IMG/VR virus record: IMGVR_UViG_2778261568_000005
Reading direction: 5' to 3' (one strand)
DNA length: 5,022 bases
Origin: a virus
Taxonomy: Duplodnaviria; Heunggongvirae; Uroviricota; Caudoviricetes
Shown: in pieces, positions 1 to 5,022 of the stretch
How positions within the stretch are numbered: the first letter of the stretch is position 1
Layout of the letters: every line of letters starts with the position of its first letter
The notes under the pieces: generated by a model
The model's input: the letters and a program-made list of their open reading frames with translations, nothing else
Database searches by the model: none
Told to the model about the DNA's origin: nothing
Translations under genes and position numbers: made by a program

Positions 1-203
1 TTGGTATACGTTTTACCGAGCATGATGTCTTTTCCTGTATGCCCGTGACATACAGTCCATACACCAACAATATCTTTATATGGTATGTAGCTGACACCTT
101 CCAGACCATCGTCACCACTCGGACCAGTGATGAGCACAGACGCTATGGCAACAGCCCCACCACCAATAGCAGCTGCTACAGCCTTGCGTAATGATGGCGA
201 CAT
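1..203 (-). CDS. rrrD: SAR endolysin (phage 21 R21 / DLP12 RrrD-type lysozyme), N-terminal 67 codons; continues beyond the left edge of the window
   Basis: Minus-strand translation from ATG at 203..201 gives [68 protein letters not shown], i.e. a Gly/Ala-rich signal-anchor-release segment followed by the start of a lysozyme catalytic region, as I recall for R21. The start overlaps the holin stop by 1 nt (TAATG). Confidence 0.85.
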
Positions 204-418
204 TATTCACCTCTCGCAGCCTTACGCTTATCTTCTTTAATCTTGAAATAAAGGTTTGTCAGATAAGTGAGAAAACCCAACACAAGGCTTCCAAGCACTC
301 CAATCGCCGCCCACTGTGACGGACTGACCTGATCAAGCCACTGTAAAAACCAGTAGCCAGCACTGCCTGCAGAGGTGCCGTAGGCAATGCCCGTTGTTAA
401 CTTGTCCATGGATTTCAT
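203..418 (-). CDS. essD: Class II holin / pinholin of the S21 (EssD) type, 71 aa
   Basis: ORF translation [71 protein letters not shown] closely matches my recollection of phage 21 S21. Dual-start motif Met1-Lys-Ser-Met4 (antiholin/holin), two hydrophobic segments, charged C-terminus. SD GGAGGTGA lies upstream of the ATG at 418. Immediately followed by the SAR endolysin. Confidence 0.9.
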
Positions 419-492
419 AGCCTCACCTCCGCGAATAACGGATGGTGTACACGGTTTGGAATGAAAGAGGGAAAGATACAGAAGTTACATTA

Positions 493-524
493 GAAAAGAA
501 AAACGCCAGCGATTATTCTGGCGT
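493..524 (-). terminator. Rho-independent terminator downstream of the AraC-family gene (minus strand)
   Basis: 7-bp stem ACGCCAG (503..509) / CTGGCGT (518..524), 8-nt loop, followed on the minus strand by UUUUCUUUUC (plus 502..493). Sits about 60 nt after the AraC stop and about 75 nt before the holin start. Confidence 0.6.
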
Positions 525-585
525 AGCTGAAAGCATCATATAATCATCAAATATGAAAATTACAAAATCATCAAAACGCATCACG

Positions 586-1317
586 TTACATCTTGCCTTT
601 TTCTAAAAAAAATCTTGATGAATATTCATGGGGGGGAACACCAAAATATCTTCTGAAAACACTTATAAAATATGACGCGCTTTCATAACCACATATTTTA
701 GCAACTTTCCCAACAGGATAGAAATTGTAGCTTAATAACCTTTCAGCCATCACCATTCGTTCTTCAAGAATTAATTTGCTAAATGATAAGCCTTCGTGTT
801 TTAGTTTTCTTTTTAACAAACTTTCACTCAGACATAGTCTTGAAGAAATATCACAAAGTCTCCATGCTGCAGATATGTCCGAGTGAATAATAGCCTTAAC
901 TTTGCTTCCTAAACTATTAAGACACCCAAACAAAAAACTCTGAAACATTTTTTCCGAGGATAAAATAGCAAGACATGCAAATAATATTGAATTTTTAACT
1001 ACAGCCGTAGTTTCACCATCACAATTCAAGCAACCTATCAAGTTCTTTAACAATGAATAGTCTGTACAGTTTACTATCAAGTATGCTGAATAAAATCTTC
1101 TTACAGAAAAAGGTGAGAGTGTATTGTTTTTAAAGAAGTCATTAACTGTTTTCTCTTCAATATCCACGATCATTATATTATCTTTATTTGAAGAAAAGAA
1201 AACTTTTAAATTGTATTCTATAGCAACAACACTTCCTTTTTTTAGAGAGATTTTTTCTTTACCAAGCCGGATATCAAACGAGTTCAAAACCAAAATGATA
1301 GAACATATGCATGGCAT
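586..1317 (-). CDS. AraC/XylS-family transcriptional regulator (about 243 aa), AT-rich, probably horizontally acquired
   Basis: ORF-track protein carries a C-terminal AraC-type HTH signature (...GYESASYFISVFRRYFGVPPHEY...) with overall architecture like the Rns/AppY/GadX group. I place the start at ATG 1317..1315 because a GGTGG Shine-Dalgarno precedes it by 5 nt; the ORF track's start at 1326 is a GTG lying inside that SD. Base composition is visibly AT-rich by eye. Confidence 0.8.
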   Translation of the reverse strand: MPCICSIILVLNSFDIRLGKEKISLKKGSVVAIEYNLKVFFSSNKDNIMIVDIEEKTVNDFFKNNTLSPFSVRRFYSAYLIVNCTDYSLLKNLIGCLNCDGETTAVVKNSILFACLAILSSEKMFQSFLFGCLNSLGSKVKAIIHSDISAAWRLCDISSRLCLSESLLKRKLKHEGLSFSKLILEERMVMAERLLSYNFYPVGKVAKICGYESASYFISVFRRYFGVPPHEYSSRFFLEKGKM

Positions 1318-1326
1318 ACCATCCAC

Positions 1327-1635
1327 CTGACATAATTAGATTTGAGTTAAGTAAGTATAGGTGGAAATATTAAAATTGCCATATTTTCAATGAGAAAAAT
1401 CTCATTATATCATCATGAACTTTGATATTTTCTTTAAAATATTTATGTAATACTAGATTAAACAGAACTATTTTTGGCTTGCTTGATTATTAATCATTAA
1501 TTAACATATTAACATTACCTTAAGCATGAACCGAATTTTTTTACAAACTGTACAACTATAGATATCATAGTGAAGTTTTTACGATTGTAAACATTCTCTA
1601 AGGAGAAAATCATCTTGTTGGTGCATTCCAAACGC
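1327..1635 (-). promoter_or_regulatory. AT-rich intergenic/leader region, candidate promoter for the AraC-family gene
   Basis: About 310 bp of very AT-rich non-coding DNA between the YbgA-like stop and the AraC start. On the minus strand an extended -10 element TGaTATAAT maps to plus 1412..1404, with no convincing -35. AT-rich tracts with palindromic TTAATTAA-type motifs (about 1486..1510) are typical of H-NS-bound xenogeneic promoters. Assignment is by eye only. Confidence 0.3.
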
Positions 1636-2595
1636 CTAGTTCACCAAGAGTCTTAGAGCCAGTTCATCAGGATAGGGGTGGAAGTAATTCTGTATAAGCA
1701 AATAATCATCAGGATACTCTGCCAAGTAATGCTTCAGCAAAGTTAATGGCGCAAGAAGAGGTAGCGTGCCAGCTCGATAGTTAAGTATAACATCGCTCAA
1801 CTCTTTACGCTGACGTGTATTTAAGCAGTTACTAAAATATCCCTGTATATGCATCAGCACATTCGTGTGATTTTTACGTGATGCAGGTTTTCTGAGAATC
1901 GCCATCAGCTTCTCACGATACACCTCAAAGTATGATTCAAGGTCTGCCCACTCATGTATTGCAGCCACAAATGGCCCCATCTCTTTATAACCGGCCTGGC
2001 TATGCGCCAACAACTGAAGCTTATAACGGCTATGAAAAGCTAATAATTCCCTTCTTGATAATTTCGCTTTATAAAGATGATTGAGCTCATGTAAAGCAAA
2101 TACTCTTTCAACAAAGTTTTCACGAAGCACTGGATCATGTAGTCGCCCATCCTCTTCAACCGGTAGCCAGGAAAACCTTTCCATCAACGTGCTCGTAAAT
2201 AGTCCCACTCCATCTTTACGACCACGATTACCATTTTCATCATATACACGCACGCGTTCCATACCACAGCTAGGAGATTTTGCACAAACCACAAATCCCG
2301 ATACATCCTTTAATTTGTCAAGATAAGAACGACTAAACTCTGTCATTTTCTCTGTAACATCCTCATTCTGGTCGTGGCTGAAACACATCCGTATATTTCC
2401 TTGCGCCGAGCGAACAAGACGTAGAGCAGGACGCGGAACTGGAAGCCCTATAGCCATTTCCGGACATACTGGTTTGAATGTTACCCATTCCAGTAATTTG
2501 TCCATTAAAAAGCTAGCTCTTTTGTGACCACCATCAAAACGGACAGAAGAACCGGCCAAACAACCACTGATCCCAACGACAGGTTTTTTTATCAT
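1636..2595 (-). CDS. DUF523 (TudS-like, putative [4Fe-4S] thio-nucleobase desulfidase fold) fused to DUF1722 (YbgA-like), 319 aa
   Basis: ATG at 2595 preceded by an AAGGGG Shine-Dalgarno. N-terminal half has the conserved cysteines in DUF523-like contexts (GISGCLAG, KPVCPEM, AKSPSCGM); C-terminal half resembles the DUF1722 domain of E. coli YbgA. Domain assignment is from recollection of the family motifs, not from an HMM search. Confidence 0.7.
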   Translation of the reverse strand: MIKKPVVGISGCLAGSSVRFDGGHKRASFLMDKLLEWVTFKPVCPEMAIGLPVPRPALRLVRSAQGNIRMCFSHDQNEDVTEKMTEFSRSYLDKLKDVSGFVVCAKSPSCGMERVRVYDENGNRGRKDGVGLFTSTLMERFSWLPVEEDGRLHDPVLRENFVERVFALHELNHLYKAKLSRRELLAFHSRYKLQLLAHSQAGYKEMGPFVAAIHEWADLESYFEVYREKLMAILRKPASRKNHTNVLMHIQGYFSNCLNTRQRKELSDVILNYRAGTLPLLAPLTLLKHYLAEYPDDYLLIQNYFHPYPDELALRLLVN

Positions 2596-2787
2596 TGCCT
2601 ACCCCTTGACTAATTCATTAACAGGTTAACAGTGTAGTACACGACCTAAACTGCCTTTCTGCCGTCATCACTGACAATTTTTTTGTTATGGACTATTCCT
2701 AATATAGTAGGAAAGTTCTTTAAGTGATCGGTAGTAATCATCTATCTTTAATACTTACTCTCAACTATCAAAAGTACAGGATATATT
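2596..2787. promoter_or_regulatory. Divergent intergenic region between the YbgA-like gene (minus) and the lipocalin gene (plus)
   Basis: 192 bp non-coding spacer between two divergently oriented start codons, each with a plausible SD (AGGA 7 nt before ATG 2788; AAGGGG before ATG 2595). It must contain both promoters; no individual hexamers could be assigned with confidence. Confidence 0.35.
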
Positions 2788-3312
2788 ATGAAGTTATGGC
2801 CTGTGTTGACTGGCATTGCACTCTCTTTCACTCTGATAGCATGTAAGGCCCCGACACCACCTAAAGGTGTGCAGCCGATTACAAATTTTGACACCAACCG
2901 CTACCTCGGAAAATGGTATGAAATAGCTCGGCTTGAGAACCGATTTGAACGTGGTCTGGAACAGGTCAGCGCCACTTATGGGAAACGGAACGACGGAGGG
3001 ATTAGTGTACTTAATCGTGGATATGACCCAACGAAAAACAAATGGAGCGAGAGCGAAGGTAAAGCATACTTTACAGGAGATAATACAACTGCAGCGTTGA
3101 AGGTTTCGTTTTTTGGCCCCTTCTATGGTGGCTATAATGTAATCAAACTGGATGATGAGTATAAGTATGCTCTTGTCAGTGGTCCGAACAGAGAATACCT
3201 ATGGATTCTGGCACGGACTCCAACTATTCCAGATAATGTAAAAGCAGACTATGTGCGTACTGCTCAAAAATTGGGATTCAATGTCAATGAACTATTATGG
3301 GTCAAACAATAA
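2788..3312 (+). CDS. blc: Bacterial lipocalin, outer-membrane lipoprotein of the Blc family, 174 aa
   Basis: Translation aligns along its length with my recollection of E. coli Blc: signal peptide ending in a lipobox (TLIAC), then ...NFDTNRYLGKWYEIARLENRFERG...SEGKAYFTGD...ALKVSFFGPFYGGYNVI...YLWILARTPT.... Opposite strand to all phage genes. Confidence 0.85.
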   Translation: MKLWPVLTGIALSFTLIACKAPTPPKGVQPITNFDTNRYLGKWYEIARLENRFERGLEQVSATYGKRNDGGISVLNRGYDPTKNKWSESEGKAYFTGDNTTAALKVSFFGPFYGGYNVIKLDDEYKYALVSGPNREYLWILARTPTIPDNVKADYVRTAQKLGFNVNELLWVKQ

Positions 3313-3340
3313 AATACCTAACCGGATTGATACTTATTAG

Positions 3341-3368
3341 AAAAAAAACCAGCCTTTGGGGAGGCTGG
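3341..3368 (-). terminator. Strong rho-independent terminator downstream of Q (tR'-like); may also stop the convergent lipocalin transcript
   Basis: Stem CCAGCCT (3349..3355) / AGGCTGG (3362..3368), 6-nt loop, followed on the minus strand by eight U (plus 3341..3348 is A8). About 100 nt downstream of the Q stop, as expected for the terminator that Q-modified polymerase reads through. On the plus strand it is preceded by the A-tract and not followed by T, so termination of blc would be weaker. Confidence 0.7.
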
Positions 3369-3468
3369 CTAAATCAGGGAACAAGCTGTTATATGATCAT
3401 AACTACGTTGCGATTCTAACATTTGAAACATTAGTCTAATGATAACCAGACAGCAACTTTTCCTTTAA
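3369..3468 (-). promoter_or_regulatory. Candidate late promoter (pR'-like) and Q-utilisation region between Q and the terminator
   Basis: Position is the canonical one for pR'/qut in lambdoid phages. On the minus strand: candidate -35 TTGCTG (plus 3456..3451), 17-bp spacer, -10 TAATGT (plus 3433..3428), and a further -10-like hexamer TAGAAT (plus 3418..3413) in the initial transcribed region that could act as a sigma-dependent pause element. The exact hexamers are my inference and not a match to a remembered sequence. Confidence 0.4.
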
Positions 3469-3846
3469 TTATCTCAAACAATCAGCATCCATCTCCAATC
3501 TGAGATCCAACACCATCAGCATGCCCTCCACTACGCCCTCAGCTTTTTGGAGCATCCTGCCAATCCAACAATCAGATCTACCATGCTTACGCGCAAGCGC
3601 CATAAAAGTCATGCCGCCGACATAATAGTCCACTAACAAATCATGCAAATCGCTGTTGTTATTTTTCAGACGGGCCATGCACCCGCAAATGATCATCGCG
3701 TCATCGTCACAACATTGCGGGCGAGATTTTACTTTTGAAGGAATTAATCCCTTAAAACCGGCGGCAATGGACGACCAGGTCACATCTTCATGATTATTAG
3801 CCGCCCACGCTCCCCAACGCTCAAGAACCATCTGAATATCACGCAT
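3469..3846 (-). CDS. quuD: Late-gene antiterminator Q (phage 82/21 QuuD-type), 125 aa
   Basis: Translation [34 protein letters not shown]...[17 protein letters not shown]... matches my recollection of DLP12 QuuD / Q82. I use ATG 3846..3844 (GGAG SD 7 nt upstream); the ORF track's start at 3861 is a TTG adding 5 residues. Confidence 0.85.
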
Positions 3847-3931
3847 CAACTTACTCCACAAAAATCAGACCAGAACGCCAATTACAAGCAAAAATCAGCA
3901 AAACAGTATTAGTTGATTGTTATCTCTGACT

Positions 3932-4069
3932 TCATACTCCTGCTCCTGTCAGTGTTTTGGCGTAATTCTTCAGTATTCGGTAATCGGTCAAAACAGAACC
4001 GGGGAAACGATATAAGCGCAGACGCACCCAGCGGTGGCGAAGACGTTCTGCCATATAAAACTCAAACAT
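3932..4069 (-). CDS. ylcG: Small nin-region protein YlcG-like, 45 aa
   Basis: Not in the ORF track (below its length cut-off). Manual minus-strand translation from ATG 4069..4067 gives [45 protein letters not shown], stop TGA at 3934..3932. Its start overlaps the rusA stop by 1 nt. Size and position between rusA and Q match ylcG of DLP12; the sequence identity itself is inferred from synteny. Confidence 0.6.
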   Translation of the reverse strand: MFEFYMAERLRHRWVRLRLYRFPGSVLTDYRILKNYAKTLTGAGV

Positions 4070-4431
4070 CATTCATTCCCCATTTCGGTGATGGTCAATT
4101 CCAGCCTCCCACCTTTGGTAACAGGCATCTTCACAACGCGGTAATCAACGACCTGAGCATCATCCAGCCAGAAACCTGCTTTGGTGAGTGCGTCAAAAGC
4201 GGCTTTTTGCAGATTATCCAGGTCACGGCGACGGCGATCCGGCATGTGGCACTCAATGCGGATTTTCACAGGCATCGCCAGGCCGATATCCAGCATTGCG
4301 TTTTTAATGATTCGGGCGACGTTATCGCGGTATGCCTGCCCCTCTGCGCTGACGTGCGTGCGCCCGCGATTATGGCGATAATAGCGATTATTGCTCGGAG
4401 GCCAGGGTAGTGTGATGTGGTAAGTATTCAC
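4069..4431 (-). CDS. rusA: RusA Holliday-junction resolvase, 120 aa
   Basis: Translation [120 protein letters not shown] is essentially the E. coli RusA sequence as I recall it. Start codon is GTG (plus 4429..4431 = CAC), overlapping the upstream ybcO-like frame stop as GTGA. Confidence 0.92.
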
Positions 4432-4556
4432 GCCTTAATTACCCCCTCTTTCAGCCAGATAACCTGCGTTCTCGCCATACCTTCCCGCGCGCATTCTTTT
4501 GCATATGCAGCATCGACTTGCTTGGCATGCCCTTTACCGGCAATCTTCTGTATGCG
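4428..4556 (-). pseudogene. ybcO: ybcO-like (DUF1364, putative nuclease) 3' remnant, N-terminally disrupted
   Basis: Minus-strand frame ending at TGA 4430..4428 translates to ...[29 protein letters not shown], matching the C-terminus of DLP12 YbcO as I remember it, with the stop overlapping the rusA start exactly as in the ybcO-rusA arrangement. Upstream the frame is closed by TAG at 4559..4557 and 4565..4563, and the only in-frame ATG (4478..4476) would give 16 aa. YbcO is 96 aa as I recall, so this looks like a truncated remnant. Confidence 0.4.
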
Positions 4557-4637
4557 CTAAACCTAGATAGAATCCACTCTGTGCACATTGAAGCCCGCTC
4601 TATGCTTCCTTTCAGGTATTGAAGGGATTGAGATGGG

Positions 4638-4940
4638 CTAAGCATTATTGGCCTCCTGCATCAGGAGAAAGACAATAATGGCGGCGCGGAGAGGTCTGGT
4701 ATCAAATATTGGGCTTACGCCTTTTGCATCCACACACCATTCAGTTAACTGGTCTAAGATAGAAATCCTGTATTTCTCAATAATCGGCCATGAAGCGCTC
4801 GGATCATTGCAGTAGTCAGGCAAATGATTTAATGGCTCAAAAGTTGTATCAGCATTTCCGTAATACCATTTGTTGGTGTTATTCCCTGATGTTTCCGGTT
4901 TACTTGCCCAAAGGCCTTTAAAAATTATGTCTCCTACCAT
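4638..4940 (-). CDS. Hypothetical protein, 100 aa, unknown function
   Basis: Uninterrupted ORF from ATG 4940 to TAG 4640..4638 with reasonable codon appearance, sitting where ninE/ybcO would be in DLP12, but I do not recognise the sequence. No Shine-Dalgarno upstream of the ATG (an AGGAG lies just inside the ORF), and a stable hairpin ends 6 nt before the start, so the start is uncertain. Confidence 0.4.
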
Positions 4941-4946
4941 TCTGTG

Positions 4947-4978
4947 TAAGCGTCAACGGAGCACCGTATTGACGCTTA
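4947..4978. other. Perfect 10-bp inverted repeat / hairpin between the upstream gene end and the 100-aa ORF
   Basis: TAAGCGTCAA (4947..4956) and TTGACGCTTA (4969..4978) are exact reverse complements around a 12-nt spacer that itself pairs (CGG...CCG). On the plus strand it is followed by TTTATTGG, so it is terminator-like for plus-strand transcripts; on the minus strand it lacks a U-tract. The stop codon (plus 4976..4978) of a minus-strand frame entering from the right edge lies in its right arm. Confidence 0.5.
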
Positions 4979-5022
4979 TTTATTGGTGAGTACTACGTTC
5001 CATGGCAGGAGTTCGTCAACTC

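Follow-up and report, generated by a model that had tools for sequence, protein, structure and literature searches.

A lipocalin, a RudS-type tRNA desulfidase and an AraC-family regulator as a probable stress-type conversion cassette between Q and the holin gene of lambda-like Escherichia coli prophages

We analysed a 5,022-nucleotide stretch of viral DNA (IMG/VR record IMGVR_UViG_2778261568_000005; this whole stretch is hereafter called the window) in which three genes, encoding an outer-membrane lipocalin, a transfer RNA (tRNA) 4-thiouridine desulfidase (RudS) and an AraC-family regulator, lie between the late-gene antiterminator gene Q and the holin gene. The segment is probably a stress-type moron, or lysogenic-conversion, cassette that occupies the slot between Q, the late promoter pR' and its terminator tR' on one side and the holin gene on the other in lambda-like phages of E. 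coli. The cassette appears to be composite, made up of a divergent lipocalin/RudS pair and a low-G+C AraC gene of the PatE/PsrA/GadW group. The window is E. coli prophage DNA, with positions 1-4949 matched at 100% identity in many complete genomes and its whole length covered, in two pieces, by strain Q65. In strain 550, one of the 100%-identical genomes, the segment lies inside a complete lambda-like prophage that runs from int to tail gene J and is integrated beside icd. Q and the holin gene belong to a single prophage, as had been proposed in an earlier reading of the sequence alone (the sequence-only reading), and this prophage also occurs in packaged form, as phage 1H12, whose DNA is 99.96% identical to window positions 1-4945.

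Three cargo genes and their known relatives

In the direction of late transcription, which is the minus strand of the window, the gene order is ninX, a ybcO remnant, rusA, ylcG, Q, the lipocalin gene, rudS, the araC-like gene and the holin gene. Of the three cargo genes, only the lipocalin gene is encoded on the opposite strand to Q and the holin gene, with which RudS and AraC share their orientation, in agreement with the orientations given in the sequence-only reading. The three cargo genes are found where that reading had placed them, and their families are those it had named:

2788..3312, plus strand: Blc-type outer-membrane lipocalin lipoprotein, 174 aa, opposed to the late operon (Pfam Lipocalin_2, PF08212, E 2e-43)
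1636..2595, minus strand: RudS, a TudS/DUF523 desulfidase fused to DUF1722, 319 aa (Pfam 2-thiour_desulf, E 4e-40; DUF1722, E 1e-40)
586..1317, minus strand: AraC/XylS-family regulator of the PatE/PsrA/GadW/AppY group, 243 aa, about 30% G+C (Pfam HTH_18, PF12833, E 3e-15, and HTH_AraC, PF00165)

The RudS protein has PF04463 at its N-terminus (residues 7-149) and PF08349 at its C-terminus (residues 192-309), and it is identical at 319 of 319 residues to gp66 of phage 1H12 (H3V29_gp66), which has been studied under the name RudS_vir. The [4Fe-4S]-binding cysteines of RudS_vir, Cys12, Cys44 and Cys110 (Table 1, PMC11417400), are all present in the translation from the window. RudS_vir has been synthesised and expressed in E. 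coli, where it reduced the 4-thiouridine (s4U) of tRNA (Jamontas et al., Nucleic Acids Res 2024, PMC11417400). In phage 1H12, RudS_vir is surrounded by the lipocalin, AraC, Q and holin genes that are seen in the window; that study treats RudS_vir alone, and the lipocalin, the AraC gene and the prophage are unmentioned. We also observed an E. coli database protein (P0071, 403 aa) that has a GGDEF domain (PF00990) in addition to the RudS domains, the latter matching at 94% identity over 92% of the query, and which may be either a genuine fusion or an artefact of assembly or frameshift.

E. coli Blc binds lysophospholipids or fatty acids. The phage lipocalin scores 315.5 bits against the NCBIfam Blc model NF007786 (cut-off 267), and matches the solved E. 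coli Blc structure 3mbt with an E-value of 3e-69 and 64% identity over 155 aa. Its N-terminus, MKLWPVLTGIALSFTLIAC and then KAP, when read by eye from the translation, contains the lipobox L-I-A-C with its cysteine at position 19 and Lys20, rather than Asp, at position +2, as fits sorting to the outer membrane. The phage lipocalin has in common with E. coli Blc (PDB 1qwd, 2aco, 3mbt) both the fold family and the lipoprotein signal. At only 64% identity to the chromosomal Blc of E. coli, however, it represents a second enterobacterial lineage, which is found beside RudS and not at the core blc locus, and it is closer to copies from Leclercia, Enterobacter, Buttiauxella and Raoultella (74-82% identity). 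The same gene has been counted as the moron 'blc' in more than 50% of 19 lambda phages from the infant gut (Mathieu et al., Nat Commun 2020, PMC6969025).

The third gene encodes a protein with a C-terminal AraC-type double helix-turn-helix domain (PF12833, PF00165), for which the ATG at 1317 annotated in RefSeq is the start that aligns with the N-termini of PatE, GadW and AppY. Its full-length identities are 53% to PatE (235 aa), 40% to PsrA (235 aa), 35% to GadW (236 aa) and 30% to AppY (235 aa), while its C-terminal half is 39% identical to GadX; the best solved relative is the GadX DNA-binding domain (3mkl, E 5e-21), followed by Rns/CsvR/ToxT. For these comparisons PatE was identified indirectly, from O157 genomes, and PsrA by way of the Sakai locus tag in PMC13502914. 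Its scores lie far below the NCBIfam cut-offs for orthologues of YdeO and GadX (112.7 versus 348 bits for YdeO and 98.7 versus 500 bits for GadX). PatE (z0321), PsrA (z1789/ECs1087) and PsrB (z2104) are prophage-borne AraC-like proteins of enterohaemorrhagic E. coli (EHEC) O157:H7 that activate gadE/hdeA and repress type III secretion (review PMC10877973). The window AraC protein is a full-length homologue of PatE and PsrA and is, like them, encoded by a prophage, but it is a distinct paralogue and not an orthologue of either. PatE is found elsewhere, beside an integrase and insertion sequence (IS) remnants, whereas PsrA also lies in the Q-holin region, behind a Q that is 82% identical in amino acid sequence to the window Q. 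A distant AraC homologue considered as a PsrA/B candidate (P0067) proved to be rare (7 genomes) and is not PsrA.

An exchangeable slot between Q and the holin gene

The features that define the slot, in order of late transcription, are as follows:

3469..3846, minus strand: Q late-gene antiterminator of the QuuD/phage-21-like family (Pfam Phage_antitermQ, E 2.5e-51)
3371..3468, minus strand: presumed pR' late promoter and Q-loading region, between the Q stop codon and the terminator
3347..3370, minus strand: tR'-like intrinsic terminator, with a 9-bp G+C-rich stem and a T8 run, about 100 nt past the Q stop (terminator scan; -14.2 kcal/mol, z -3.5)
2596..2787, no strand: divergent intergenic region between rudS and the lipocalin gene, 192 bp
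1318..1635, no strand: AT-rich spacer between rudS and the araC-like gene, about 27% G+C, with minus-strand promoter-like hexamers at 1591-1564 and 1382-1354 (no more such sites than shuffled sequence gives)
503..524, minus strand: intrinsic-terminator-like hairpin and T-run after the araC-like gene and before the holin gene (terminator scan; -12.1 kcal/mol, z -2.4)
203..418, minus strand: class II (P21 S-type) holin, the first lysis gene and the downstream boundary of the slot (Pfam Phage_holin_2_1, E 3e-35; annotated class II holin/essD; DLP12 homology 1-429)

Alignment to the K-12 prophage DLP12 gave the boundaries of the inserted segment, as the sequence-only reading had suggested it would. 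Homology to DLP12 extends over 3487-4517 (rusA to near the end of Q, 94% nucleotide identity) and resumes over 1-429 (holin onwards), so that it breaks 18 nt before the Q stop codon (3486/3487) and 11 nt before the holin start codon (429/430). Nothing within the divergent segment 430-3486 matches DLP12, which has nmpC and IS5 at this place. Because homology stops before the end of Q and resumes before the start of the holin gene, we read 430-3486 as an exchangeable cargo slot. The limits of 493-3340 originally put forward for the three-gene module correspond almost exactly to the interval between the hairpins at 503-524 and 3347-3370 (both on the minus strand), and the DLP12-divergent segment is slightly wider. 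The hairpin at 503-524 lies outside the part homologous to DLP12, and on this alignment it belongs to the cargo. The hairpin at 3347-3370 is found where tR' is expected and is kept in other variants of the module, and there is no other strong terminator between the two.

Many Shiga toxin (Stx) phages with a related Q (75-77% nucleotide identity within Q) likewise lose homology at 3487. Since homology to both DLP12 and the Stx-phage Q genes ends inside Q, the last six codons of Q and the presumed pR' region appear to travel with the cargo and not with Q. This presumed promoter region (3371-3468) contains a TTGCTG-17-TAATGT-like pair and a block, ATATAACAG, that is also found after quuD of DLP12.

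The nmpC cargo of DLP12 and the stx cargo of Stx phages occupy the same slot, with the same homology break 18 nt before the Q stop, and nmpC is opposed to the late operon as is the lipocalin gene here. The cargo genes themselves are different, in that the present cassette contains neither a toxin nor a porin but three genes with stress-type functions. The slot also holds different genes in an O157 prophage and in prophage Sp4 of strain Sakai, where psrA and tRNA genes are found; as such, the view that these genes occupy the cargo position of a lambdoid prophage is well founded. The presence of other genes at the same place in related phages indicates, by comparison, that the cassette in the slot is dispensable. 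In Sp4 (locus L103, 26716-29669), psrA (ECs_1087) follows Q, with a CAAX-protease-like gene before it and the tRNA genes ileZ-argN-argO after it. The RefSeq coding sequence of psrA (588 nt) looks short at its 5' end, as homology to the window AraC gene begins at 28678, 126 nt upstream of the annotated start.

An AraC-family regulator after Q is a recurring arrangement, judging from the position of PsrA in the Q-holin region of Sp4 together with that of AraC homologues, 62% and 37% identical to the window protein, which lie directly downstream of an antiterminator of a different family, PF03589 (L021, 4045-5735; L019, 3953-5741). The latter two cases indicate that this arrangement arose or was exchanged across types of Q.

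The base composition of the cargo is unlike that of the flanking phage genes. The AraC gene and its leader have a G+C content of 27-33%, the RudS and lipocalin genes of 38-46% and the flanks of 45-54%. The AT-rich spacer (1318-1635) is probably the AraC gene's own promoter or a silencing region, and the divergent region (2596-2787) likely holds the promoters from which both the lipocalin and RudS genes would be expressed in a lysogen.

Distribution and conservation of the cassette

Among 5426 complete E. coli genomes, 1151 have matches to the module; 669 of them have at least 80% of it covered at one place, and in 589 genomes at least 80% of the whole 5-kb window is. A near-full-length RudS gene, nearly always chromosomal, was found in 1064 of the 5426 (19.6%). 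E. coli has been described as lacking RudS in a 2026 review (PMC13602947) and in PMC11417400 (there as TudS/RudS homologues). With the gene in that many complete genomes, these statements need qualifying, since about a fifth of strains carry it by way of a prophage cassette. The module-bearing host strains that we inspected are mostly non-EHEC isolates.

The genes travel together between Q and the holin gene, which the sequence-only reading had proposed to check against databases. In an independent set of 80 IMG/VR viral contigs, retrieved using RudS, the full order of Q, opposed lipocalin, RudS, AraC and holin is present in 74, and the remaining six are without one or more of the genes. Spacing in these contigs is 162-169 bp between Q and the lipocalin gene and 192-193 bp between the lipocalin and RudS genes, and between RudS and AraC it has a median of 355 bp and a maximum of 1913 bp (one contig). 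All four of the E. coli contexts inspected have the genes between Q and the holin gene, on at least three prophage backbones, namely the lambda-like prophage at icd, a DLP12-like nin region (ybcN-ninE-ybcO-rusA) and two Qin-like prophages (ydfU/rem/hokD), in one of which the module copy is interrupted by an IS3 element. Most of the module is also present in 12 records of isolated phages, including 1H12 and the Lambda_ev series, 11 of them at 99.9-100% identity.

Two observations from this survey concern individual loci. A contig of 2113 nt binned as 'Candidatus Nanosynbacter' (JARKOR010000135.1, locus L023) carries Q (98%), the lipocalin gene (97%) and an incomplete RudS gene (92%), arranged as in the E. 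coli phages, and is almost certainly a mis-binned fragment of an E. coli prophage. One module-bearing prophage has a 3.9-kb inverse-autotransporter (intimin/invasin-like) gene at a second cargo site, between P and the nin region (L002, 12174-16082).

Ratios of nonsynonymous to synonymous divergence (dN/dS) between module variants were 0.07-0.10 for the lipocalin, 0.10-0.13 for RudS and 0.21-0.27 for AraC, compared with 0.08-0.09 for Q and the holin, with synonymous divergence (dS) of up to 0.6; these comparisons indicate that all three cargo genes are under purifying selection. Among four module variants the divergent region 2596-2787 has a mean column identity of 96%, although the flanking genes are 92-95% identical at the nucleotide level with dS of 0.19-0.30, and this conservation argues for a conserved regulatory sequence. 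Divergence among variants is lowest in Q and the lipocalin, higher in RudS and highest in AraC and the holin. This gradient and the low G+C content of AraC (about 30%, versus 38-46%) fit a composite origin of the cassette.

Origin of the lipocalin-RudS pair

Chromosomal homologues of RudS, with 71-76% identity, are found in many Enterobacterales. In Citrobacter braakii, Klebsiella grimontii and Pectobacterium brasiliense (L011-L015, 1-6960) RudS is the last gene of a conserved operon of nine genes with the order SnoaL, SDR, amine oxidase, DUF1365, CFA-synthase-like, DUF2878, an unassigned 175-aa protein, DUF3833 and RudS. We considered whether the unannotated protein of 174-175 aa in the Citrobacter and Klebsiella operons could be a hidden lipocalin, but it has no similarity to the phage lipocalin, and one copy gave just a weak chalcone-isomerase-like hit. 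A database protein of 500 aa (P0076) has DUF3833 fused to RudS.

The closest non-phage lipocalins (71-82% identity) form a lineage apart from core Blc (about 60% identical), and in five of the eight closest non-phage loci a divergent RudS gene lies 0.9-1.5 kb from the lipocalin gene. These five linked loci are from Leclercia tamurae, Enterobacter nematophilus, Buttiauxella izardii, Raoultella sp. and Huaxiibacter (L024, L025, L027 and L028, about 3590-6525; L026, 4183-6525), and their lipocalins are 74-82% identical to that of the phage. Between the two genes there is a MerR/MlrA-like regulator in four loci, and a transthyretin-like gene was found in two (Leclercia and Huaxiibacter). In the window, tblastn found no MerR gene, and the gap between RudS and the lipocalin gene is only 192 bp. 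Given the chromosomal unit of lipocalin, MerR-type regulator and RudS in these loci, the phage pair is probably a captured enterobacterial chromosomal unit that has lost the MerR/MlrA-like regulator. Homology between the phage module and the chromosomal loci is limited to coding sequence (65-75% nucleotide identity), which suggests that the capture is old and that its junctions have been lost. RudS is also paired with neighbouring stress genes in other chromosomal MerR/LitR-RudS units, such as phrB-litR-rudS of Pseudomonas (PMC11417400). In contrast to these units, the phage copy is without a MerR gene and has an unrelated AraC regulator after RudS.

Proposed function and alternative explanations

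If the segment is a stress-type conversion cassette, a lysogen would transcribe the three genes from promoters of their own, located in the divergent 192-bp region and in the AT-rich leader of AraC. The lipocalin would provide the host with envelope-lipid handling as an outer-membrane lipid-binding lipoprotein, RudS would partly erase the photosensitive s4U8 from tRNA, and the AraC protein, as a PatE-like regulator, would rewire acid- or stress-response genes of the host. Upon induction, Q-modified polymerase would pass the tR'-like terminator and run antisense across the lipocalin gene, and late transcription would then proceed in the sense direction through RudS, AraC and the second terminator into the lysis genes. 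The layout of the genes makes it reasonable to expect RudS and AraC to be read through in this Q-dependent way.

Several points weigh against this interpretation. Although well expressed, RudS_vir took away less s4U than did other RudS enzymes, and growth on 4-thiouracil had its shortest lag with this enzyme (both PMC11417400); from these two results, tRNA may not be its only or main substrate. The benefit of near-UV protection is not obvious for gut isolates. The targets of PatE are not transferable to the window AraC protein at 53% identity, and promoter-like matches across the window were no commoner than in shuffled sequence in our promoter scan.

The main alternative is that the cassette, or at least RudS, mainly serves lytic growth of the phage, in that RudS made late would strip s4U8 after UV-type induction and so keep translation going for virion production, with the lipocalin and AraC as secondary passengers. 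We consider this unlikely. It is in keeping with the co-orientation of RudS and AraC downstream of the tR'-like terminator and upstream of the holin gene, with no strong terminator before 503-524, with the invariant position of the module in the IMG/VR contigs, and with the finding in PMC11417400 that over-expression of RudS diminishes the growth delay induced by ultraviolet A (UVA). Yet the divergent region is conserved and the chromosomal ancestors had a regulator of their own, both of which speak for independent expression of the lysogen type, late transcription would leave little time for de-modifying the tRNA pool, and the tRNA activity of RudS_vir is comparatively low (PMC11417400). Phages with a related Q have unrelated cargo, and the cassette is therefore not needed for lysis.

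A more specific scenario, which we likewise regard as unlikely, would join the origin of the pair to such a lytic role. The lipocalin-RudS pair would be a chromosomal MerR-controlled photo-oxidative stress unit that was captured by lambda-like phages, lost its sensor-regulator and is now transcribed late in dependence on Q, so that UV-type induction erases s4U8 and protects translation for virions. The s4U content of tRNA and the response to near-UV would then be strain-variable and determined by phage in about a fifth of E. coli.

The sequence-only reading had allowed for a fitness, stress or defence cassette. Our analysis favours the stress-type interpretation, and leaves the part of that proposal concerning defence without support. 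Prophage cargo sites often hold defence genes, tRNA is in general a frequent target of conflict between phage and host, and in related loci the adjacent prophage regions do contain genes that resemble defence genes, such as ABC-three-component systems. A module for anti-phage defence or counter-defence, for example one that alters tRNA to affect tRNA-targeting nucleases or superinfecting phages, is nonetheless very improbable, as a comparison with 5027 PADLOC models gave no match to any of the proteins (E <= 0.01), each of the three is clearly homologous to proteins that serve in housekeeping or stress, and their chromosomal relatives lie in metabolic or stress operons and not in defence islands. 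That the genes are functionally neutral and persist solely because they are linked to Q and the lysis genes would accord with their place between two essential phage functions, where they are carried along at every recombination, and with the existence of IS-disrupted copies, but it is very improbable in view of dN/dS of 0.07-0.27 across variants with dS reaching 0.6, intact reading frames in about 1000 genomes, the conserved non-coding region and the demonstrated enzymatic activity of an identical RudS protein (PMC11417400). Nor are the three genes contiguous housekeeping genes of the host, as DLP12 of K-12 has other cargo at this place.

As a stress-type conversion cassette, the module is in part familiar. 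The use of the Q-holin slot for cargo is classical, RudS and the blc moron have been published, and the AraC regulator belongs to a studied family. Full-text literature searches turned up no paper on the three genes as one unit. As such, the suggestion that this is not a described module stands for the combination but not for its parts, given the identical RudS_vir, the blc moron and PsrA in the Q-holin region. What is new is modest, and consists of the likeness of the lipocalin-RudS pair to a chromosomal unit without its MerR regulator and of the frequency of RudS among complete E. coli genomes.

That prophages carry cargo between Q and the holin gene is an established idea, to which these results contribute little. 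They do mean that E. coli is not uniformly RudS-negative, and work on tRNA 4-thiouridine, UVA-induced growth delay or tRNA quality control in natural isolates should check for the prophage gene. The recurrent adjacency of lipocalin and RudS, in both chromosomes and phages, gives a lead that can be tested on what bacterial lipocalins do, which is poorly understood. The presence of a PatE/PsrA-like regulator in many non-EHEC strains could alter the regulation of acid resistance in commensal and extra-intestinal E. coli.

Neighbouring genes and the end of the window

Outside the slot, the window contains the following features:

3932..4431, minus strand: ylcG (3932-4072) and rusA (4069-4431), nin-region genes upstream of Q (Pfam RusA; annotation)
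ninX, minus strand: the gene furthest upstream in the window, with its 5' end cut off
4946..5022, no strand: end of an ISEc23-like (IS66-family) element, outside the module, which truncates the 5' end of ninX

No tRNA genes were found in the window, and an Rfam scan of it gave a single signal, a match below the gathering score on the 3347-3370 terminator hairpin. A search for flanking repeats or insertion scars gave only short repeats at chance level.

The window leaves the sequence of phage 1H12 and strain 550 at 4945/4946, and its final 77 nt, which start with GTAAGCG, match 73-77 nt in strain Q65 that lie 1.5 kb further on, where they border an ISEc23 transposase gene. In the source of the window, the IS element abuts ninX and has removed its first codons. 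The genes upstream of ninX (ninE, a methyltransferase gene, ninB and ren) may have been deleted, and the prophage may be defective. Between rusA and ninX, ybcO (DUF1364) is present only as a C-terminal remnant (4428-4517), which RefSeq annotates as a partial pseudogene in identical genomes.

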